Shown: positions 14,908 through 34,841 of the stretch, piece after piece
How positions within the stretch are numbered: the stretch's first letter is position 1
How the letters are laid out: the number at the start of each line of letters is the position of its first letter
From: Candidatus Woesearchaeota archaeon
GTDB taxonomy: Archaea; Nanobdellota; Nanobdellia; Pacearchaeales; GW2011-AR1
Reading direction: 5' to 3'
DNA: 37,612 bases
Assembly: GCA_964519005.1 (NCBI GenBank)
Contig: CAZFLO010000003.1
Span: 1-37,612 of the forward strand
The notes under the pieces: model-generated
Told to the model about the DNA's origin: nothing
Seen by the model: the letters and a program-made list of their open reading frames with translations, nothing else
Databases searched by the model: none
Position numbers and translations under genes: made by a program

Positions 14908-17331
14908 TTATTTCTTCTCAATCTTCTTCTTCAACTTTTTCTCTCTAGCTTCAACCTCGCTAACCTTATCCTCAACCTTCTCCACATCTTTCTTAGGGAT
15001 CATTTTAGCAATATCCTCCATCGAAGGCATTCCAGACATTGAACCAGCCCTAGCCTTAACTTCATCATCTTTCTGCTTCTTCAAATATTCAAAAGCTTCT
15101 TCAAAATCTTTTTTAGTAATTCTAATCTTAGTCAAATCTTCTTCCTTATAATTTCTCTTAATAGAATTAATCCCTGCATTACGACAAACAGCCTCGATAT
15201 CAGCCCCAGTCCAATTTTCACTTTCCCTAGTCATCTTAACTAAATCAACATCTTTCTCCAAAGGCATTTTTGCAGTATGAACTTTGAAAATCTCTCCACG
15301 AGTTTCAAGATCAGGATTAAATAATTCTACATGAGAGTCAATTCTTCCAGGTCGCAAAATCGCAGGATCAATTAAATCTTTTCTGTTTGTAGCGGCAATA
15401 ATCATAACATTCTCTAAATCTTCAACTCCATCAAGTTCAGTCAACATCTGATTAATAACTTTTTCCGAAGAATCATTCCCCATTCCAGATCCACGAGATT
15501 TTGAAATAGAATCAAATTCGTCAAAGAAAATAATTGAAGGAGAAACTTGCTTGGCTTTCTTAAAAATTTCACGAACATGTTTTTCACTTTCTCCAACCCA
15601 TTTGGAAATTAATTCCGGTCCCTTAACTGAAATAAAATTAGCGTTAGATTCTGTTGCAACAGCCTTAGCAAGCAAAGTTTTCCCAGTTCCAGGAGGCCCA
15701 AATAATAAAACCCCCTTGGAGGGTTTGATTCCAGCAGCAACATACAAATCAGGGCGTAGCAAAGGCAATTCAACTAATTCACGCAATTTATCTTTAGCAT
15801 CTTGAAGCCCACCAATATCAGTCCATTTTATATTGGGTTTCTTAATTAAAACTTCACGCATTGCAGAAGGCTCAACCATTTTCATAGCATAAACAAAATC
15901 ATCTCTCTTAACAACTAAATTAGAAAGTACTTTTTCCCTTTTTTCCATAATCTCTTTTTCTTCTATGCTCAAAACTTCTCCTTCTTTCAAATTCTTGTCT
16001 TCAATACCCTGATTTTCCATGTCTTCAGCAAGACTCATGATATCTGCATAAAAAGGTTTAACCGAATGCAAAGCTGCTTCCTTCCCTAAAACTTCTAAAT
16101 CCGCGCCAGTAAAACCAATTGTCTTATTTGAAAATTCAGTTAAAATTGCTTCCTTATCTTCAAGAGGCATATTCCTCGTATGGATTTCCAAAATCTTCCG
16201 TCTACCTTCTTCCGTTGGAGGATTAATTCGGAGTTCACGATCAAATCTCCCGGGTCTCCTCAAAGCCTCGTCCAAGTCATCTGGTCGATTTGTCGCAGCC
16301 ATAACAACAACTTGTCCCCGACTCTTCAATCCATCCATCAAAGTCAATAATTGTGCAACAACTCTCTTCTCAGCCTGGTCACTACTTTCTCCACGCTTAG
16401 GAGCAATTGCATCAATCTCATCAATAAAAACAATAGCCGGAGCATTCTTTTGAGCTTCCTCAAATTTACCCCTTAAATTTTCTTCACTCCCCCCGTGATA
16501 TTTACTCATAATTTCTGGACCAGCAATAGAAATAAATTTTGCATCAGTTTCAGTTGCAACAGCCTTAGCAAGCAAAGTTTTCCCAGTTCCAGGGGGCCCA
16601 GTCAACAAAATTCCCTTTGGAGCACCAATTCCTAATTTCTCAAAAATTTTAGGATGCTTCATAGGAAACTCAACCATCTCACGAATCTTCGCTATTTCTT
16701 CGTCAAGCCCACCAACATCTTCATAATGAACATTCGCTCCACTCCCTTCTCCAACTGAATCTGAAATTGTAATTTTTGTTTTATCATTAACAATTCCAGT
16801 CTCTAAAGTTTTAGGCAAAATTTTTGAAATAACACAAACAATTTTCTCACCATTACTTAACGGCACACTTGTTCTCTGTCCAACAGAAACCGGAGCCCCA
16901 CTAAAAGCACTTCGAAAAATATGTTCATTCCGAGGATCTTTCAAACTAGGAATTACATTTTGTTTCATTTCTTCTTCGGGAACATTTTCATTTTCCAAAA
17001 CAGAAATTTCAATAGACCTAAGAGATTTAACTTCTACTTTGTTTTGAACCACAGTAACATTTTCTCCAAGGCTCATTCCTAAAACATGACGAGTTTCACC
17101 ATCAATTCCTATCTTCCCATCAAAAATATCATTCCCCCGAATTGCCCTAAAAATCATCTTTTTTGAATTTCCAACTTGAACCAAAGTTCCAGAAACAATT
17201 CCTAAATCTTCCATATCATTATTAGAAATAGAAACTAAATTTTTTCCTCGATATTCTTGCTTTGCTTCAACTACTTCTAAAATTAATTTTTTACCTCGAA
17301 GAGGTTCTCGTGACTTTTGGTTATCTTTCAT
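14908..17331 (-). CDS. cdc48: Cdc48/VAT-type AAA+ ATPase (two AAA domains), paralog 1
   Basis: 807 aa. Cdc48-N-like start, two [17 protein letters not shown] Walker A boxes, two DEID/DEFD Walker B boxes, pore loops SKYHGGSE and SKWVGESE. Lys-rich C-terminal tail. ATGA overlap with the upstream sHSP gene. Confidence 0.92.
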   Translation of the reverse strand: MKDNQKSREPLRGKKLILEVVEAKQEYRGKNLVSISNNDMEDLGIVSGTLVQVGNSKKMIFRAIRGNDIFDGKIGIDGETRHVLGMSLGENVTVVQNKVEVKSLRSIEISVLENENVPEEEMKQNVIPSLKDPRNEHIFRSAFSGAPVSVGQRTSVPLSNGEKIVCVISKILPKTLETGIVNDKTKITISDSVGEGSGANVHYEDVGGLDEEIAKIREMVEFPMKHPKIFEKLGIGAPKGILLTGPPGTGKTLLAKAVATETDAKFISIAGPEIMSKYHGGSEENLRGKFEEAQKNAPAIVFIDEIDAIAPKRGESSDQAEKRVVAQLLTLMDGLKSRGQVVVMAATNRPDDLDEALRRPGRFDRELRINPPTEEGRRKILEIHTRNMPLEDKEAILTEFSNKTIGFTGADLEVLGKEAALHSVKPFYADIMSLAEDMENQGIEDKNLKEGEVLSIEEKEIMEKREKVLSNLVVKRDDFVYAMKMVEPSAMREVLIKKPNIKWTDIGGLQDAKDKLRELVELPLLRPDLYVAAGIKPSKGVLLFGPPGTGKTLLAKAVATESNANFISVKGPELISKWVGESEKHVREIFKKAKQVSPSIIFFDEFDSISKSRGSGMGNDSSEKVINQMLTELDGVEDLENVMIIAATNRKDLIDPAILRPGRIDSHVELFNPDLETRGEIFKVHTAKMPLEKDVDLVKMTRESENWTGADIEAVCRNAGINSIKRNYKEEDLTKIRITKKDFEEAFEYLKKQKDDEVKARAGSMSGMPSMEDIAKMIPKKDVEKVEDKVSEVEAREKKLKKKIEKK

Positions 17332-17783
17332 TTTTTAAACGAAACCTCCAAAATACCATTTCTAAAATTTGACTCATAACCCTTTGGCCTAATTTCTTTA
17401 CTCAAAGGATAACTTCCAAGATGCTCTTTTCCATCTTTAACTTCCAAAACTTTCTTTCCCGTAGCAACTCTTTCGCCATAATCATTTTCAATAATTTCAT
17501 CTTTAATTTCCGCAAAAACATTTTCTTTTCCAGAAAAATCAAATACAAAATAAATTCTTTTCTTTGTTGAAATTTTATCCAAAAGAACTTTTCCAAAAAC
17601 ATCTCTTTGCATTCTCTTTGTTGTTTTTCTTTTTCCATCCGGACCCAAAGTCGTATATTCAACAGAACTGTTTTCCCCAGCTAAACGCTTAAACAAATCA
17701 TCTATTCCCCCACCAAAAAAATCATCTCCAAACATTTTAACCGAAGTAACTTCCCCCTTTATTCGAAATTGCTGTTTTAACAT
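17328..17783 (-). CDS. hsp20: Small heat-shock protein (Hsp20/alpha-crystallin-like)
   Basis: C-terminal [12 protein letters not shown] and [12 protein letters not shown] fit the alpha-crystallin domain pattern. An alternative ATG at 17735 would remove the 47-nt overlap with the upstream cdc48. Confidence 0.5.
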
Positions 17784-20064
17784 TATTCAAAAATTGCTCT
17801 TCGATTTTTTCGTAAGTCACAAGGGATTGCTTCGTCACACTAGGTTGAACTTTTTTCTTAGCTTTTTCAAAATGATTTTTATTCACAATATCTGCATCCA
17901 AATTTTCCCTTAACGCAATCATTCCTGCTTCTCTAGTCAAAGCTTCCAAATCAGCCCCGGTAAAACCATCAGTTTCTTTTGCTAATTGATTTAATTTGAC
18001 ATCTTTTGCCAAAGGCATTCCTTTCGTATGAATCTCTAAAATCATTTTTCTTCCAGCTTCTTCTGGAGCATTCACAAGTAAAATTTTATCAAATCTCCCG
18101 GGACGAAGTAAAGCAGTATCAAGCATATCAGGTCGGTTCGTCGCTGCAATAACTAAAACATCTTTCATTTCTTCAAGGCCATCCATCTCTGACAACATTT
18201 GATTTAATACTCTCTCAGTAACTTTATTTTGATCCATACCTCGTCTTCCAGCAATCGAATCTAATTCATCAAAGAAAATAATACAAGGAGAAACTTGTCT
18301 TGCTTTTTCAAAAATCTTTCTAACTCCCTCTTCACTTTTTCCAACCCACATAGATAACAAAGAAGGTCCCTTAATTTGAATAAAATTAGCTTCACTTTCT
18401 TTTGCAACCGCTTTCGCTAAAAGAGTTTTCCCGGTTCCAGGAGGACCATACAATAAAATTCCTCGACTAGGACGAATCCCAATTCTCTTAAAACTTTCAG
18501 GATATTTCATTGGCCATTCAACAGCTTCTTTCAAATTTTGTTTAATCTTATCAAGTCCACCAACGCTATCCCAATCCACATTAGGAGTTTCAACTAAAAC
18601 TTCACGCATTGCACTAGGCCTAACAATCTTTAATGAATCCACAAAATCATCTTGTTTAATAATTAATTTTTCCAAAACCTCTTGAGGAATATTTTCTTCA
18701 TCAAGTTTAATTTTCCCGAGATTCTTTCGCAAAACATTCATCGCTGCTTCCTTAGTTAAAGATTCCAAATCAGCTCCAACAAATCCGTGAGTCAAAGAAG
18801 AAATTTTATCTAAATCAACATTTTTGTGAAAAGGCATTCCTCTTGAATGAATTTTCAAAACTTGAAGTCTTCCAACTTTATCTGGAACACCAATTTCAAT
18901 TTCACGATCAAATCTCCCAGGTCTACGCAAAGCCGGATCCAAAGAATTAACTCTGTTAGTAGCACCAATAACAATAACTTTCCCTCGAGAATTCAAGCCA
19001 TCCATCATGGTCAGTAACTGGGACACAACTCTTCTTTCAACCTCTCCATGTGTCTCTTCCCTCTTAGGTGCAATTGCATCAATCTCATCAATAAAAATAA
19101 TCGAAGGAGCATTCTTCTCAGCTTCATCAAAAATATTTCTAATTTTCTTTTCACTTTCCCCATAAAATTTACTCATAATTTCAGGACCATTCAATAAAAT
19201 AAAATGCGCATCAGATTCTGTGGCAACTGCTTTAGCTAAAAGTGTTTTCCCCGTTCCTGGAGGTCCGTGTAACAAAACTCCTTTTGGAGGTGTAACCCCT
19301 AATCTCTGAAAAATTTCCGGGTGCTTCATTGGAATCTCAACCATTTCCCGAATCTTTTTTATTTCCTCGTTTAATCCACCAATATCTTCATAATTAATTG
19401 TTGGAATTTTTCCTTCAATTGCATCAACTGCTTTCGAATTCAAAACAACTTCTGTGTTTTCCGTTACAATAACTGGACAACTAGGATTTGTAGAAACAAC
19501 ACTGAATTTTATTTGTGCAACAGCTCCTCCAAGTTGTCCACCAAGTCCAGGAATGTTTCCCAAAATATCTCCCAAATTACCAAAAATATCATTCAAATCT
19601 CCCATCTCTTCACTCATCAATTCTTTTCTTTTTTGAACTCCTCCCAAAACCAAAACATCTCCTTTAATTATTATTCTTCCAAGTAAACCTTTTCTTAAAC
19701 TCGTTGGATCTCCTTGAACCATTACTCCTTTTTGAGCTGGCGCAATCATAATTTTTTTTGCTTCTTTAACTTCAGCTTTAGAAACCAAAACTTCATCCCC
19801 AATTCCAACTCCAGCATTCCTACGCAAAAGTCCATCGATTCTAATTATTCCATCTCCAATATCTGCAGGATAAGCTCTATCAGCAATAGCCACAGTTTGC
19901 TTATTCGCTTTAATCAAAATTGCATCTCCTCGCTTAATTCCTAACTCACTCATTAATTCTAAATCAAGTCGAGCAATTCCTTTATACACATCATCTTGAA
20001 GTGCCTCACTGACCTTAAGAATAATTTCTCCTTTCTCATTTACTTTATTTTCTTCACTTTTCAT
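17737..20064 (-). CDS. cdc48: Cdc48/VAT-type AAA+ ATPase (two AAA domains), paralog 2
   Basis: The track ORF starts at a TTG (20076). The ATG at 20064 is preceded by GGAG. Double-psi-barrel-like N-domain (GIARLD...GDAILI...IRIDG), two [15 protein letters not shown] boxes, pore loops SKFYGESE and SMWVGKSE. Ends ...GGSYFG. Confidence 0.92.
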
Positions 20065-20404
20065 CTTCTTCTCCAAAATTTAAACTCAGTCTCCCAGCCT
20101 CTTCAAAACAAAGCCGAACCATATCATCCATTAATTTTTCCTTTTCATGCATAAACGAAACAATCTCTTTTGGAATCGACACAGCATAACTGTTACCAAC
20201 AATCCGCATTTTTACTTTAAATTCTTTTTGATTCAATTCCTTGAATCTATTATATTCTTCGACATCTTTCGGATGAACTATTTTGTCATGACCCAAAGGA
20301 CAAATCAAAGCTCTCATCTGAAAACCATTTTTATTGACAACCGCCTTCTGCAAAGGCTTGCTACAAGTCTTGCATAAAATCGTATGATCAAATATATCTG
20401 TCAT
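20054..20404 (-). CDS. Zinc-ribbon plus AbrB/SpoVT-like swapped-hairpin domain protein
   Basis: 116 aa. N-terminal CKTC...CPLGH. C-terminal [18 protein letters not shown] is typical of AbrB/MazE-type domains. Overlaps the cdc48 start. Confidence 0.5.
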
Positions 20405-26099: not shown

Positions 26100-26366
26100 T
26101 TATTTGATTAAAGATTGTATTCCTTCAATCGCATCTGCAATTTGTCTACCTTTTGGAGTAAGTTTGATAAGTTTGATTCTTCCTTTCTTATCAAATTCTA
26201 CCAACTTCAGGTGTTCCAAAGTTTGCAGTATCTTTACCGCATGGCTATAAGTACAGTCTACTTCTTTAGCCAATATACTACCATATCTCATCCGCGTGTT
26301 CTTCTTCAAAGAAACCAACATTAAAGCCGGCTTTTTTCGAAAGAAGATGTCAAAGTTATCTTCCAT
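26100..26366 (-). CDS. Small winged-helix transcriptional regulator
   Basis: 88 aa. GSILAKEVDCTYSHAVKILQTLEHLKLVEF...KGRIKLIKLTPKG is a typical HTH plus wing. Confidence 0.6.
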   Translation of the reverse strand: MEDNFDIFFRKKPALMLVSLKKNTRMRYGSILAKEVDCTYSHAVKILQTLEHLKLVEFDKKGRIKLIKLTPKGRQIADAIEGIQSLIK

Positions 26367-26528: not shown

Positions 26529-27125
26529 ATGAAAATCCTAGCAATCGCAGACACACACGGAGATTCCGATTTAGTCAAAAAAATTGGAGAAATGGCAAAT
26601 AAAGAAAACGTTGATTTAATTCTTCACGCAGGAGACTTAACTTGGTTCAATGAAAAAAAGGAAGGCATAATAAAACCATTAATAAAAAAGGGAAGGGAAA
26701 TTTTAATGGTTCACGGAAATCATGATTCCTCCACAACAATTAAAGAATTCTCAGAAATATATCCAGGAATAATTGATCTCCATAAAAAAGGCATAGAAAA
26801 AGAAGGCATAGGTTTCTTTGGATCAGGAACAACAGATTGGGGATTCAAAGAGGATTCCGAAATTGTATTGAAAGAATTAACAGAAGGCCACGAAAGAATA
26901 AAACATTTGAAAAAGAAAATAATGATTTCACATTGTCCCCCAGTCGGAAGTGCAATAGAATTAATTGGATATCCGGGCTCCTACGGAGTAAGAGAAGCAA
27001 TAAAAAAATTCAAACCAGACTTCGTAATCTGTGGACACATTCACGAGGGTGGCGGACTCATCGAAGAGATAGGTGGAGCAAAAGTAATCAATGCTGCATT
27101 TTCTCCGACAATTTTTGAAATCTAA
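26529..27125 (+). CDS. Calcineurin-like metallophosphoesterase (YfcE/MJ0936-like)
   Basis: 198 aa. ADTHGD, HAGDL, GNHD, SHCPP and GHIHEG metal-ligand blocks. Confidence 0.78.
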   Translation: MKILAIADTHGDSDLVKKIGEMANKENVDLILHAGDLTWFNEKKEGIIKPLIKKGREILMVHGNHDSSTTIKEFSEIYPGIIDLHKKGIEKEGIGFFGSGTTDWGFKEDSEIVLKELTEGHERIKHLKKKIMISHCPPVGSAIELIGYPGSYGVREAIKKFKPDFVICGHIHEGGGLIEEIGGAKVINAAFSPTIFEI

Positions 27126-27127
27126 AA

Positions 27128-27682
27128 TTAGAAATTTTTAGCGCCCAATCCTCGACGAATAATTCCAACTTCTCCAATAATTTTTGAAACCAAATCCTTA
27201 TTCATTCCTTTTTCCAAATAAAACTTTTCCATTTCCTTTAACTTTTTAGGAAAACTAAAATAAGGTCCAAAAGGACTTAGTGGAGTTCCAGAATAATCTC
27301 CATCATCAATATTCAAAATATAAGTCACATTCATTTTCTCTTTACTCAAATTATCTTCAACCAAATTATAACGAGCACCATATTCCTCAAATTTCTTATC
27401 ATTAAAAAATTTCAAAACTCCGACTAATTTAGCATGATCATCAAAAAGAGAACGATTCCTATTTGCACTTTCAATTCCCAAAGAAAAATCATCCACCAGA
27501 GAATAATCTCGACCAGAAATCTTAAATCCATGTTCATAACTTCCCTCGAGTTTTGAAATATTTTTGCCATGTTCAGAATTTTCTAAAAACTCATAGAAAC
27601 TTTTTTCCTTTTCTAATTCAGACAAATCTTCTTCCAAAAAACCCATTTTCATTTCAACATCTTCTTTAAATTTTTTATTCAT
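27128..27682 (-). CDS. Operon gene 6: hypothetical protein, paralog of gene 1
   Basis: 184 aa. ATGA overlap with gene 5. FYLEKGMNKDLVSKI vs FYQEKGMQEELLKEV, and HGFKISGRDYSLVDDF vs NGFSVYTNDFSVVDQY. Confidence 0.6.
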   Translation of the reverse strand: MNKKFKEDVEMKMGFLEEDLSELEKEKSFYEFLENSEHGKNISKLEGSYEHGFKISGRDYSLVDDFSLGIESANRNRSLFDDHAKLVGVLKFFNDKKFEEYGARYNLVEDNLSKEKMNVTYILNIDDGDYSGTPLSPFGPYFSFPKKLKEMEKFYLEKGMNKDLVSKIIGEVGIIRRGLGAKNF

Positions 27683-27900
27683 TTTTTATTACTTCCCTTT
27701 TCTAAATTATTTTCTTTATCAAACCAGAAACATTCTTTATGCTTTTCTTCATGACAGATATAATTTCCAGTGGGTTCTCCATATTGACCATATTCAATTC
27801 CTTTTATCTTACATTCATAATTTCCCAAAGAAGAATACAACAAATCATCAAATTCAAATTTTGAATAAGGGCAATTTTGCCCACATTGTTTTTTATTCAT
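27679..27900 (-). CDS. Operon gene 5: Cys-rich small protein
   Basis: 73 aa with 5 Cys, including CGQNC. GGAGAGGATC lies upstream. 8-nt overlap with gene 4. Confidence 0.5.
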   Translation of the reverse strand: MNKKQCGQNCPYSKFEFDDLLYSSLGNYECKIKGIEYGQYGEPTGNYICHEEKHKECFWFDKENNLEKGSNKK

Positions 27901-28192
27901 TTTTCTTTGATCCTCTCCCCATAATCAATTCCAAAGTACTCAATCGAACAATTTTCTCTTTCCCCATGTCTTTATTACCATCACTAACCGCAATAACTTT
28001 TGCTTTCAAATATCCGGATTCGGTGGGAAACAACCTGCTATCAATTAAATAATTTCTAACTTTAACATCAAAATTTTCTTCCCCATGCATTTCCAAATCA
28101 TGAATATAACTTTCAGTATTGGGGCAACCAGGAATACCATAATGAACTCCGTGAAATATTTCCAACTTTACAAAATAATTATCTTCATTCAT
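27893..28192 (-). CDS. Operon gene 4: hypothetical small protein
   Basis: 99 aa. GAGGT lies upstream. 8-nt ATGAATGA overlap with the gene 3 stop. Confidence 0.5.
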   Translation of the reverse strand: MNEDNYFVKLEIFHGVHYGIPGCPNTESYIHDLEMHGEENFDVKVRNYLIDSRLFPTESGYLKAKVIAVSDGNKDMGKEKIVRLSTLELIMGRGSKKNE

Positions 28193-28418
28193 TTTTTATT
28201 ACCTCTTTCTCAAGTTCATTTTCTTTCACTGGAATTTTATCCACATCCCCATAACTATATTTTACCCCTGCCACCACAACTCCAATCAAATCAACCTCTC
28301 CTAAATCGGAAACTCCATACCCTTTCAAATCCAAATGTTCGCAAAATTTTTCCAACCGATAAGCTTGAATATATGGGCCACAACTCATTAAATAATGTGC
28401 ATTATCTTCATCCCGCAT
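28185..28418 (-). CDS. Operon gene 3: hypothetical small protein
   Basis: 77 aa. GGAGG is 5 nt upstream of the ATG at 28418. Overlaps gene 2 by 31 nt. Confidence 0.5.
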   Translation of the reverse strand: MRDEDNAHYLMSCGPYIQAYRLEKFCEHLDLKGYGVSDLGEVDLIGVVVAGVKYSYGDVDKIPVKENELEKEVIKNE

Positions 28419-28879
28419 ATTTTCCTCCGAACATATTTCTCTTTTTCCAAACCATACTTCTCAATCTCAGAAGATCTCCATTCTTGAGCTGTCGCAAATT
28501 CTCCATAATTCACAAAAGATTTATGCTCTTTTTTTCCTTCTTCTTCTAATTTCCTTATTATTTTTTTTGCATTGTAATTTTTCAAAAGAAAGGACAATCC
28601 TAAAACTGATTTATCCCCCGCCAAACCCATATCACTAAAATCATAAAAAAGAGAAGAAACCAATTCCCCCGTTTCCAAATCTACTCCTAAACGATCATCG
28701 ATAACTTCTATTCCATACATATAAGGTTCTGTATTTCCCCCGCCAAATCCATCTCGTCCATCAGCTTGAAGAGCCAACCAAGGAATCTTTTGCCAATCAT
28801 CTTTCTGATTTCTAAAATATTCCCGAACATCTTTCACAATTTCTTTAACATTTACTTCAATTCTTTTTTCTAATTCCAT
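28388..28879 (-). CDS. Operon gene 2: hypothetical protein
   Basis: 163 aa. SD-like GGTGAGGG is 6 nt upstream of the ATG. There is a 1-nt gap after the gene 1 stop. Confidence 0.55.
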   Translation of the reverse strand: MELEKRIEVNVKEIVKDVREYFRNQKDDWQKIPWLALQADGRDGFGGGNTEPYMYGIEVIDDRLGVDLETGELVSSLFYDFSDMGLAGDKSVLGLSFLLKNYNAKKIIRKLEEEGKKEHKSFVNYGEFATAQEWRSSEIEKYGLEKEKYVRRKICGMKIMHII

Positions 28880-28880
28880 T

Positions 28881-29408
28881 TTAAACCCTCACCAACTCCG
28901 AAGCTATTTTCACAACTTCTGAAACTTCTTTCAACAACTCTTCTTGCATCCCTTTTTCTTGATAAAATCCAACCATTTTCTCTAAAGGATTAGGCAAATA
29001 AAGACCCCCGCCATTTTGATTCCACCGATATTCAAAAAGAACATTAAATTTATTATCCTTCATCCAATTATCCCTCAAATTAATTCCCAATTCAATATCT
29101 CCAAAACTTTTACTAGAATAAAACTCAAAAATTTTCGAATAGCTCTTAGAAGTCAATTCATCTTTATCATAAGGCCCATGATTTATGCTATCCTCATTAT
29201 ATCCCAAAGTAACAATCTTATATTGATCAACAACACTAAAATCATTTGTATAAACACTAAACCCATTTTTTAATTCCTCAAAACCAAGAATATTAAATTT
29301 AGCTTGACTAACAAAATCCAAAACCTCTCCCCTCTTTTGATAATTCTCAAAACTTTTTTTATTCTCTTTCTCAAAAATTTTAATTTGATCTTTAACATCT
29401 TTTTTCAT
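28881..29408 (-). CDS. Operon gene 1: hypothetical protein, paralog of gene 6
   Basis: 175 aa. Leaderless-type promoter (aaatataca-like box about 20-24 nt upstream). Aligns along its full length with 27128-27682. Confidence 0.6.
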   Translation of the reverse strand: MKKDVKDQIKIFEKENKKSFENYQKRGEVLDFVSQAKFNILGFEELKNGFSVYTNDFSVVDQYKIVTLGYNEDSINHGPYDKDELTSKSYSKIFEFYSSKSFGDIELGINLRDNWMKDNKFNVLFEYRWNQNGGGLYLPNPLEKMVGFYQEKGMQEELLKEVSEVVKIASELVRV

Positions 29409-29516
29409 AACCTATCCAAGAGTTGTATATTTCATACACCTTTCTGTACAAAATGTGTCAACATAGTTGCACGCCACATAAATACTTATAAAATATCTCC
29501 AATTACTCATTTAACA

Positions 29517-30356
29517 ATGCTCGATAAAAACACAATTCAAAAAATAGAAAAACTTATTTCTTACGAACCAAGAAGCATAAATGAAATCGCGATTAATCTA
29601 AATAAAAATTGGAGAACCGTTGACCGGTACCTAAAACAAATTGAAGAAGAATATGGAACAATCAACACAAAAACTTTCCGAGGAGGAACAAGGGGAGCTC
29701 TAAAGATCGCATATCTTTCAAATCCAGAAAAAATTAGCCACACAAAATTTCAAGAAGAACTCGAAGAACAAATAATCAAACTAAAAAAGAAAGGGGATTT
29801 TTCAGCATTTGACATTTTCCAACATGTTCCAGAAAAAAACAAAAGAGTTATTGTCGAAAATGAAATTAATGAAGCTTCAACAAATTTAACTGAATTAATC
29901 CAAATATTAAAAGAAACAAAAAAAGAATTAAAACTCTTCTCAGGGAACCTTTCTTGGATTAATCTAAAAGAAGGAAAAATTGACTTATTTGAAACATTAG
30001 AAAATTTGGTAAAAAATGGAATCAGAATAAAAGTATTATGTCGGGTAGACTTAGATGGAATTGAAAACATAAAAAAAGTTCTTTCTTTGAATTATAAATA
30101 TGGAAAAGAATTAATTGAAATACGTCACAAAGAACATCCAATAAGAGCTTTTGTTATTGATAATAAAACAATAAGATTAAAAGAAATAAAAGAACCAACC
30201 GGAAAAATTAAAGAACTAGATAAAAAGAAATTTATTTTTTACACAATAAAAGACAAAGAATGGTCAGAATGGCTCGGAAAACTTTTCATAAAATTATTCA
30301 ACACTTCAATAGGTTCAGAAAGAAGAATCCAAGAATTGAATAAACTAATCAAATAA
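29517..30356 (+). CDS. wHTH transcriptional regulator with TrmB-like architecture
   Basis: The track ORF (from 29304) overlaps the divergent gene. The ATG at 29517 has cttataaaata about 25 nt upstream. N-terminal SINEIAINLNKNWRTVDRYLKQIEEEYG is a wHTH, followed by a ~200-aa C-terminal domain. Confidence 0.6.
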   Translation: MLDKNTIQKIEKLISYEPRSINEIAINLNKNWRTVDRYLKQIEEEYGTINTKTFRGGTRGALKIAYLSNPEKISHTKFQEELEEQIIKLKKKGDFSAFDIFQHVPEKNKRVIVENEINEASTNLTELIQILKETKKELKLFSGNLSWINLKEGKIDLFETLENLVKNGIRIKVLCRVDLDGIENIKKVLSLNYKYGKELIEIRHKEHPIRAFVIDNKTIRLKEIKEPTGKIKELDKKKFIFYTIKDKEWSEWLGKLFIKLFNTSIGSERRIQELNKLIK

Positions 30357-30357
30357 A

Positions 30358-30600
30358 CTAACTTCCAGCACTACAAGAGTATCCTTTACTAGAAACAGGC
30401 CCATCATAAAAATACTTCTCAACAATCTTATTTATAAAATCAGTTTCAGAAATAACAATTTTTTGAATAAAATTCGGACTTGAATCAGAATCTACCAAAA
30501 ACAAAAAATTTCCAAACAAAAATCCTAACAAAATAATTCCAATAACAAACAAAATGACTATTTTTGATTCAAATTTTCTCTTTCCAACTTTTATTATCAT
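30358..30600 (-). CDS. Small membrane-anchored hypothetical protein (80 aa)
   Basis: This is the C-terminal part of track ORF 30358-31089, starting at the ATG at 30600 (MIIKVGKRKFESKIVILFVIGIILLGFLF...). The TATA-like box is shared with topA, 25 nt upstream. Confidence 0.4.
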   Translation of the reverse strand: MIIKVGKRKFESKIVILFVIGIILLGFLFGNFLFLVDSDSSPNFIQKIVISETDFINKIVEKYFYDGPVSSKGYSCSAGS

Positions 30601-30620
30601 GAAATCAATAAACAAAAACC

Positions 30621-30630
30621 ATTTAAAATA
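30621..30630. promoter_or_regulatory. Single TATA-like element in a 46-nt divergent intergenic region
   Basis: atttaaaata lies about 25 nt from the ATG at 30600 (minus) and about 22 nt from the ATG at 30647 (plus). Confidence 0.45.
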
Positions 30631-30646
30631 ATTACTATACGTAATT

Positions 30647-34082: not shown

Positions 34083-34841
34083 ATGGAGAGTATGGAAAAC
34101 TTAAAAGAAACACTTACAAAGATCGGATTGACGGAAGGAGAAAGTCAAGTATATAATGCGTTGATTGAACTAGGACAAACGACTGCTGGAAAAATAATAA
34201 AAAAAGCAAATATAGCAAGTTCAAAAGTTTATGATGTTTTACATAAATTGCAAACAAAAGGATTAGTTGGGCATATAGTAAAAGAAAACATAAAATATTA
34301 TGATGCAACCCCTCCTGAAAGATTGATTGATTTTCTAGAGGAAAAGAAAGAGAACCTTTCACAAGCACAAAATAAAATTAAAAAAATAATTCCCTCAATT
34401 AAAGCAAAACAAAAACAACAAGAAGAAAAAAATAATGTGATTGTCTATACTGGACTTCAAGGTCCAAAAATAGTTTTAAAAGAAACAATTGAAGCAGGAA
34501 GAAAAGGAAAAAAATTAATGGGTTTCGGAACAGATGAAGATCCATACAAAGATTACCTCCCTGCACAAATTGAAGAACATTTTAAGGAACAAAAAAAATA
34601 TGGGATAAAATGGCACCTATTATTCACAAAAGGAAAATGGTCTTCAACAAGTCCTTTAGCAGAAATTAGATATTTGCCCCCAGGGCAAAATATTCCAGTA
34701 AGAACAATGATTTATGGAAACAAAGTGGCAATAGTAGATTTTAACAAACCTTTCACTACAATTATTATTGAAAAAAAAGAAATAGCAAAAGCCTACAAAC
34801 AACAATTCGAAACACTTTGGAAAATTGCCAAAAAAAATTAA
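34083..34841 (+). CDS. TrmB-family transcriptional regulator
   Basis: 252 aa. LTEGESQVYNALIELGQTTAGKIIKKANIASSKVYDVLHKLQTKGLV is a TrmB-type wHTH, followed by a coiled linker and a C-terminal domain. Confidence 0.72.
   Translation: MESMENLKETLTKIGLTEGESQVYNALIELGQTTAGKIIKKANIASSKVYDVLHKLQTKGLVGHIVKENIKYYDATPPERLIDFLEEKKENLSQAQNKIKKIIPSIKAKQKQQEEKNNVIVYTGLQGPKIVLKETIEAGRKGKKLMGFGTDEDPYKDYLPAQIEEHFKEQKKYGIKWHLLFTKGKWSSTSPLAEIRYLPPGQNIPVRTMIYGNKVAIVDFNKPFTTIIIEKKEIAKAYKQQFETLWKIAKKN

Follow-up and report, generated by a model that had tools for sequence, protein, structure and literature searches.

Does a compact row of small genes in an archaeal genome encode a self-contained molecular system, or is it one state of a gene repertoire that differs from genome to genome? 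This question is raised by an operon on the minus strand of contig CAZFLO010000003.1, analyzed here over 37,612 nucleotides (nt; hereafter the window), the relatives of which point to a DPANN archaeon of the Woesearchaeota/Nanoarchaeota group as the source. Six open reading frames (ORFs) between positions 27128 and 29408, named g1 to g6 in the order of transcription, lie opposite a divergently transcribed gene for a presumed regulator (Table 1), and the initial annotation took them for a self-contained six-protein system, bracketed by paralogs and served by a dedicated regulator. A gene-neighbourhood check across 17 lineages retrieved no second genome with the same six genes, so that claim is not upheld, and the sequence comparisons contradict a fixed six-part machine. 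With moderate confidence, we read the operon as one genome's version of a regulator-gated, hypervariable and fast-evolving array of small-protein cassettes, probably related to biological conflict.

The loci were gathered from species-representative genomes and Joint Genome Institute (JGI) metagenomes, using matches to the protein families together with the regulator as an anchor. Besides the window, the set comprised 11 lineages with 75–85% identical regulators and five more distant ones, and a presence/absence matrix was drawn up for the 17 lineages. In the 11 closely related lineages, the slot beside the conserved regulator holds between one and ten genes and its content differs in each. 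The genes are drawn from a common pool of at least 10 families of small proteins (family A, phrog_25871, g3, family C, the four-Cys g5, the five-Cys b82, the YDLN-repeat family E, and single-locus families), of which the loci carry different subsets in broadly colinear order. In transcription order, the cassette of the window reads A-B-g3-C-g5-A, that of L006 A-b82-B-E-E-f65, that of L008 x176-C-C-cys69-A, and that of L013 x161-b82-x91-g3-A-C; L022 and L023 share cys83-cys95-A, L024 has A-A-A-g5-x198, L025 has A-A-g5'-g5-x232 (g5' being a divergent tandem paralogue of g5), and L015 has family A only. The cassette of L009 consists of a fusion of an N-terminal A part with C followed by E, that of L016 of b82-g3-g5 followed by a seven-codon remnant of an E gene, and the longest, in L021, counts ten genes (A-like, x203, b82, g3, g5, A, E, f59, E, f65). 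In the matrix, g2 occurs in two lineages (the window and L006; 10 of the 11 other close lineages lack it), g3 and family C in four each, and g5 in six. Homologues of g3 were found in L013 (63% identity), L016, and L021, and those of g5 in L016, L019, L021, L024, and L025. For g4, L008 has two homologues in tandem, L009 has one joined to a truncated family A gene, and L013 has a homologue too. The bracketing by paralogs turned out to be incidental, as family A stands at position 1, 2, 3, 5, or 6, with up to three members in tandem and a copy number of 0 to 3 per locus.

Judged from these loci, duplication, deletion, fusion, and decay all reshape the arrays. At L009:3204-3839, the N-terminal two-thirds of family A are joined in frame to a complete family C (g4-like) gene, and since family A thereby loses its conserved C-terminal FFxKKGM helices, the fusion is direct evidence of deletion within an array. 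Because the shared families keep a broadly colinear order, the comparison suggests an ancestral larger array, later eroded and re-expanded as genes were deleted and duplicated. Family E, which is absent from the window, consists of peptides of 48–65 amino acids (aa) with two to three repeats of [SAN][PA]YDLNx[VAI]GGF separated by basic-residue spacers (L006:1570-1871, L009:3836-4033, L021:2914-3445) and resembles multi-core peptide precursors or repeated short linear motifs; its remnant in L016 reads MNPYDLN before the stop, and x198 of L024 ends in NNPYDLRRGAY.

The cassette genes also evolve faster than their surroundings. Their pairwise ratios of nonsynonymous to synonymous divergence (dN/dS, NG86) range from 0.12 to 0.79, compared with 0.07–0.12 for the regulator and 0.18 for the adjacent metallophosphoesterase (MPE) gene in the same genome pairs; single values are 0.35 for g2 (vs. 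L006), 0.22 for g3, 0.42 for g4, and 0.38 for g6. Between the near-identical strains L022 and L023, the three cassette genes differ by 3 synonymous and 14 nonsynonymous substitutions and eight neighbouring genes by 19 and 20, respectively (Fisher p = 0.039), a suggestive excess of nonsynonymous change in the cassette at small numbers (17 substitutions).

What stays constant is the regulator and the promoter region that it shares with the cassette. Copies of the regulator at 79–85% identity were found in metagenome-assembled genomes (MAGs) of Candidatus Woesearchaeota and Nanoarchaeota. Its helix-turn-helix (HTH) matches are all sub-threshold (HTH_11, the best, at 2e-4; HTH_5, HTH_24, DUF7342, and HVO_A0114), and residues 112–218 match the PADLOC model DrmC (PLD) weakly (E = 0.01). 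Neither the regulator nor 10 of its homologues matched Pfam TrmB (PF01978) at E ≤ 0.05, a model that does match another protein of the window (34083-34841), and the label 'TrmB-like' given to the regulator thus describes a resemblance in layout that profile searches did not confirm. Nor can it be called dedicated: it is a conserved core gene linked to MPE and CYTH genes, and its 51–56% identical homologues retain the conserved block of the spacer and face quite different genes. For instance, the distant regulator of L027 faces a nucleoside 2-deoxyribosyltransferase (PF05014, 6e-8), that of L026 a 344-aa protein and a weaker AAA_28/dNK-like kinase, and that of L019 a family A-like gene, an AAA_28 NadR-like kinase (1e-20), and g5, in that order. 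In L013, whose cassette counts six genes, the regulator homologue (L013:5063-5902) has a stop after codon 130, yet tblastn aligns all 279 residues; it is either a pseudogene or the product of an assembly error.

The spacer between regulator and operon holds two AT-rich TATA-like elements, as the initial annotation stated, and could be aligned across 14 loci. It is strongly conserved in all of them, and since the synonymous sites of the adjacent genes are saturated (synonymous divergence dS > 1), this conservation implies a functional cis-element. Between the TATA boxes lies a 31-bp block, of which 22–29 of the 31 positions are identical in 10 loci, including those with regulators only 51–56% identical, and which occurs once in the window, where zero chance matches are expected. 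Its core is a perfect palindrome, TTGACA-N5-TGTCAA, in L009 and L016 and TGTAC-N5-GTACA in L017. The block is a candidate operator for the adjacent basic HTH protein and is placed so that both promoters could be controlled from it. L015, L017, and L022 carry a variant with 15–18 of the 31 positions identical; these three, in which the MPE gene is downstream of the regulator, share the central block AAAAAATACAACTAT instead of the TGTCAACATAGTTG form, and a change in the operator-like block seems to have accompanied the rearrangement.

On the operon side, the six-ORF layout with the coordinates and lengths of Table 1 was reproduced from the ORF table and the minus-strand sequence, as was the tight packing, with 1 nt between g1 and g2 and subsequent overlaps of 31, 8, 8, and 4 nt. 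Shine-Dalgarno (SD)-like motifs were found upstream of each of the internal genes (GGTGAGGG for g2, GGAGG for g3, GAGGT for g4, GGAGAGGATC for g5, GGGAAGT for g6), and g1, which lacks an SD, has an AT-rich TATA-like element 14–28 nt upstream. In the 14-locus alignment, the first ATG keeps its position with respect to this element, whatever family comes first. With its start at or near the predicted transcription start, g1 is probably translated from a leaderless mRNA, and the TATA-to-ATG distances would fit leaderless starts on both sides of the spacer. For g2 to g6, coupled translation is predicted, driven by SD motifs that lie within the 3' end of the gene upstream, and the same design, with the SD inside the preceding gene, recurs at nearly every junction in the 11 related loci. 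Several of the small proteins share C-terminal 'ENxLExxV' tails, and a common C-terminal peptide signal was considered and rejected, as the codons of the tails contain the SD and start codon (ATG) for the following gene, a constraint at the DNA level; translational coupling is therefore a conserved design feature of the whole array. Taken together, the layout supports a single predicted operon that is regulated, leaderless, and translationally coupled. Its GC content is like that of the rest of the window and chromosome, and the stop codon of g6 lies 2 nt away from that of the convergent MPE gene.

Table 1 Position and description of the operon, its divergent promoter region, and its adjoining genes in the window
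Feature	Position	Strand	Description
MPE	26529..27125	+	Metallophosphoesterase, 198 aa; Pfam Metallophos 4e-20; boundary gene of the variable slot
g6	27128..27682	-	184 aa, second family A paralogue; last operon gene
g5	27679..27900	-	73 aa, small Cys-rich protein
g4	27893..28192	-	99 aa, family C; motifs FHGVxxGxxGCPxTES and FPTxSGYLKAK
g3	28185..28418	-	77 aa, lineage-specific small acidic protein
g2	28388..28879	-	163 aa, family B (uncharacterised phrog_25871)
g1	28881..29408	-	175 aa, family A paralogue; first operon gene
Divergent promoter region	29409..29516	.	108-nt spacer; aligned across 14 loci
Operon TATA-like element	about 29423-29437	-	TATGAAATATACAA; window sequence
Operator-like block	29441..29471	.	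TTTCTGTACAAAATGTGTCAACATAGTTGCA, 31 bp, conserved; between the two TATA boxes
Regulator TATA	29486-29493	.	TTATAAAA; 23 nt upstream of the regulator ATG; conserved in the spacer alignment
Presumed regulator (REG)	29517..30356	+	279 aa, basic (+13); N-terminal HTH-like region, C-terminal domain of ~170 aa

The intact-frame homologues that every family has in other genomes, even though synonymous divergence is saturated, show these to be genes and no chance ORFs. The six proteins are all mildly acidic, and transmembrane helices are absent, as initially annotated (no 19-residue window above Kyte-Doolittle 1.31). The statement that none has a recognised domain held for Pfam, NCBIfam, and PADLOC, in which g1 to g6 gave no significant match (none at E ≤ 1 in PADLOC-DB v2), and failed for g2, which matches PHROG 25871; for g1, nothing was found in PHROG either. 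Profile-based sequence searches of the PDB with families A, B, and C, g3, g5, and the regulator yielded nothing significant. As far as was searched, four of the five families appear to be confined to the related archaeal clade. The five cysteines of g5 were recovered, four of them at conserved positions. The paralogy of g1 and g6 was borne out by BLASTP (26% identity over 133 aa, E = 1e-6), with tblastn in agreement, and a profile built from both and one relative retrieved four further members. Family A is a deeply diverged, multi-paralogue family evolving by birth and death: the closest relatives of g1 in other genomes are only 25–33% identical, with none above 33% in any relative, and g6 is 61% identical to the last cassette gene of L008. 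An alignment of eight family A sequences was too divergent for pattern scanning, and the AlphaFold2 model from five sequences was poor (predicted local distance difference test score, pLDDT, of 50), its fold search returning only noise. Two proteins tried as hidden members of the family, x176 of L008 and x161 of L013, were rejected by hhalign.

The one family with a wider distribution is that of g2. Residues 12–144 of g2 match the 153-position profile of PHROG 25871 weakly but over its full length (E = 7.6e-4), and while the single-protein search gave eight homologues, an exhaustive profile search retrieved representatives of 543 clusters at 50% identity, of which 397 scored E ≤ 1e-10. All 73 sampled homologues match phrog_25871 (best 9e-24) and none of the 73 matches Pfam. 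The family has the strongly conserved motifs QKxxWQxVPxLALQADGRxG and VDLETGELV. The AlphaFold2 model of g2 is confident (pLDDT 91, predicted template modelling score 0.85); it found no structural neighbour in the PDB (best E = 9), and its only match in BFVD was the homologue from phage phiM12 (template modelling score 0.72, E = 1e-7). Homologues of g2 occur in large Sinorhizobium and Rhizobium phages, where they are annotated as hypothetical proteins and sit among many small genes, near HNH, MazG-like, ligase, NadR, and PnuC genes. In the phiM12-like phages (L011, i.e., phiM12 163865-172284, and L029:2725-8426) this neighbourhood is a conserved block of PnuC, a NadR-like nicotinamide mononucleotide adenylyltransferase/kinase, HNH, the g2 homologue, a MazG-like pyrophosphatase, and DNA ligase. 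On a metagenomic contig of higher GC content (L007:504-1604), a solitary g2-family gene is divergent from that of a 161-aa protein, which by eye only has the look of a nucleoside deoxyribosyltransferase or DUF4406-type protein.

The flanks of the slot are conserved to differing degrees: across the relatives, a winged-helix protein of 88 aa is 85–94% identical, MPE 44–81%, and topoisomerase IA 63–76%. The MPE gene, convergent to the cassette in the arrangement of the window, is linked to the regulator in all arrangements seen, being directly downstream of it in L015 (alone) and L022 (with CYTH right after) and ~1.1 kb downstream, with CYTH, in L017. A gene for a CYTH protein (triphosphate tunnel metalloenzyme) follows the regulator on the same strand in L008, L009, L013, L014, L016, and L021. 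In all, REG-CYTH or REG-MPE-CYTH orders were counted in nine relatives; the regions noted downstream of the regulator are L008:2655-3161, L009:1719-2216, L022:6846-7921, and L015:7526-8116. Since the REG-MPE-CYTH order of L022 has gaps of only a few nucleotides, it suggests an operon and a signal related to nucleotides or phosphate. In the window, the stretch 30357-30646 is a gap where relatives carry CYTH, the gene having been lost or never present. The public annotation has an ORF of 80 aa here, between regulator and topoisomerase (30358-30600, minus strand), with one hydrophobic helix (IVILFVIGIILLGFLFGNFLFL); its 243-aa version with a GTG start in the ORF list is probably spurious. The 88-aa winged-helix protein (26100-26366, minus strand), with HTH_27 just above and DUF6293_C just below the Pfam cut-off, adjoins MPE in most relatives and thus places a second small, conserved protein, predicted to bind DNA, at the border of the slot. 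The neighbouring genes of the window belong to the cellular core (HerA, Trm5/TYW2, FEN1, PolB, RsmB, MetAP, two CDC48, shikimate kinase, Hjc, TFIIS, a tRNA, topoisomerase IA, a TrmB protein, and NreA). Contigs from ENA, JGI, Logan, and NCBI encode the same proteins, and the longest such contig is identical with the window. The CDC48/VCP-type double-AAA ATPases are tandem paralogues of 807 and 779 aa (14908-20076, minus strand), and an ORF of 151 aa between them overlaps both.

Beyond the gene structure, homology, mosaic content, operator-like block, and relative rates described above, we infer the following mode of action. The regulator probably binds the 31-bp block between the divergent TATA boxes and, when bound, would gate its own gene together with whichever cassette lies opposite. 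As the regulator stands in operons with a CYTH enzyme and MPE in relatives, its signal may be a nucleotide or a phosphate-derived small molecule. The products would most likely act singly or in small sub-modules, as fast-evolving accessory proteins, and the setting would most likely be biological conflict, either virus defence and counter-defence or the interaction of symbiont and host; the conflict role is proposed on account of the birth-and-death dynamics, a dN/dS above that of the flanks, the tandem paralogues, fusion, and decay, and the one member of a phage family. Several observations weigh against this array reading. The DNA-binding domain of the regulator is only putative, its HTH matches being sub-threshold, and models of known defence, anti-defence, toxin, or immunity proteins gave no match to any of the six products. 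Searches of IMG/VR and INPHARED returned no hit for family A, g3, g4, or g5, which leaves g2 as the only link to viruses. The window is without CYTH, and no remnant of it was found between regulator and topoisomerase. The broad colinearity of shared genes would be compatible with the slow decay of one ancestral multi-gene system as well, and the higher dN/dS of the cassettes could reflect relaxed constraint instead of an arms race, the strain-pair test counting 17 substitutions. A more far-reaching version, which we consider unlikely, would be a signal-gated DPANN platform, in which the HTH regulator, CYTH and MPE enzymes that could make and break a nucleotide or polyphosphate signal, the operator, and the leaderless promoter drive an integrase-free, fast-diversifying effector array used against viruses or on the host cell.

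The alternatives differ mainly in what they make of the variable content. The six proteins could still form a fixed, self-contained system or complex in which the two paralogues act as structural bookends and which has a regulator of its own, in line with the tight coupling of the genes in translation, the roughly colinear order of shared genes across genomes, and the adjoining regulator and operator-like block. This is very unlikely, as the same six genes occur in no other genome, g2 being missing from 10 of 11 close lineages, as arrays of one, two, and three genes exist (L015, L009, and L016), as an A/C fusion lacking the conserved C-terminus of family A is tolerated, and as family A varies between 0 and 3 copies. 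Rather improbable, in our view, is a role as accessory factors of nucleoside or nucleotide salvage, whereby the regulator would run a salvage regulon and the small proteins would aid or modulate the action of enzymes, for example the adjoining phosphoesterase. Such a regulon would be of importance to DPANN archaea that rely on host-derived nucleotides. The deoxyribosyltransferase and AAA_28 kinases faced by the 51–56% identical regulators with the same block, the MPE and CYTH genes linked to the regulator, and the NadR, PnuC, and MazG genes near the phage homologues of g2 all point in this direction. However, this is guilt by association for six proteins devoid of enzyme-like or nucleotide-binding motifs, the phage context comes from one conserved phage lineage and provides no independent samples, and a housekeeping role is hard to square with presence/absence variation and fast divergence.

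A viral or plasmid origin would explain other features: a domesticated or decaying remnant of an integrated element (moron-like early genes) in a recombination hotspot would account for a PHROG family member, tiny overlapping genes packed as in phage accessory regions, and the gene decay and fusion observed. It is highly doubtful nonetheless, because no integrase, att site, terminal repeat, or structural or replication gene accompanies the operon, the GC content is chromosome-like, all relatives have a conserved slot and promoter, and four of the five families are absent from viral collections. The idea of an orphan array of immunity proteins against polymorphic toxins of neighbouring cells, a specific form of conflict, draws on the small, soluble, acidic proteins, the tandem paralogues, the birth-and-death turnover, and the tight packing. 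There is, however, neither a toxin gene or domain in the flanks nor a match to any Pfam Imm family, and a leaderless promoter under a conserved regulator is atypical of such arrays, which makes this idea in turn most improbable.

The regulator-gated cassette array that we favour has partial counterparts among known systems. As in integron cassette arrays, a conserved platform (here regulator and promoter) drives a variable promoter-proximal array of short, packed genes, the content of which differs between close relatives. Unlike in integrons, there is no integrase among the genes called within ~10 kb on either side of the window operon, no recurrent inverted repeats of the attI/attC kind could be detected, neighbouring genes overlap or are separated by 1 nt, and the broadly colinear order points to duplication and deletion, not to site-specific capture. 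The hyperplastic accessory or early regions of large phages (phiM12, RHph_TM30) share the overlapping small ORFs, the fast turnover, and phrog_25871, whereas the locus described here lies in a cellular chromosome among PolB, FEN1, CDC48, and topoisomerase genes, and its other families were undetected in viral collections. Defence islands and orphan immunity arrays likewise occupy a fixed chromosomal slot flanked by conserved genes, vary in presence/absence at the strain level, contain tandem paralogues, and have an elevated dN/dS; here, by contrast, no PADLOC or Pfam match to defence, toxin, or immunity families (Imm and SUKH-type included) was obtained, and all components are below 205 aa and without recognisable enzymatic domains, in which they differ from defence islands. 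Finally, the regulator is comparable to TrmB-type archaeal regulators (a winged HTH with a ligand-binding domain) in its N-terminal HTH-like region and C-terminal domain, its divergence from the presumed target, and the palindromic conserved site between two TATA boxes, but differs from them in lacking a PF01978 match, with generic sub-threshold HTH matches and the weak PLD-like (DrmC) one only.

A literature search found no description of a variable operon of this kind in DPANN archaea or Woesearchaeota, nor of a CYTH/MPE/regulator module. The protein families are undescribed, and their organisation is an unusual variant of the flexible genomic hotspot, promoter-anchored, integrase-free, and with a regulator linked to CYTH and MPE; the novelty is modest, and the locus is a well-documented variable accessory operon that is not demonstrably a new system or mechanism. 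The most tractable single lead is g2 with phrog_25871, a large family (> 500 50%-identity clusters) common to phages and cells, with a confident predicted fold and no solved relative, and thus a reasonable target for structural and functional work. DPANN genomes are tiny, yet this slot is kept, with quick gene gain, duplication, fusion, and loss under a conserved regulator and operator-like block. If its products act in conflict with viruses or hosts, the locus would give access to the interaction of episymbiotic archaea with their partners, and the linkage of regulator, CYTH, and MPE would point to an unexplored archaeal signalling route. Should the signal-gated platform prove true, it would be a new way to organise and regulate a fast-evolving effector repertoire in reduced genomes.

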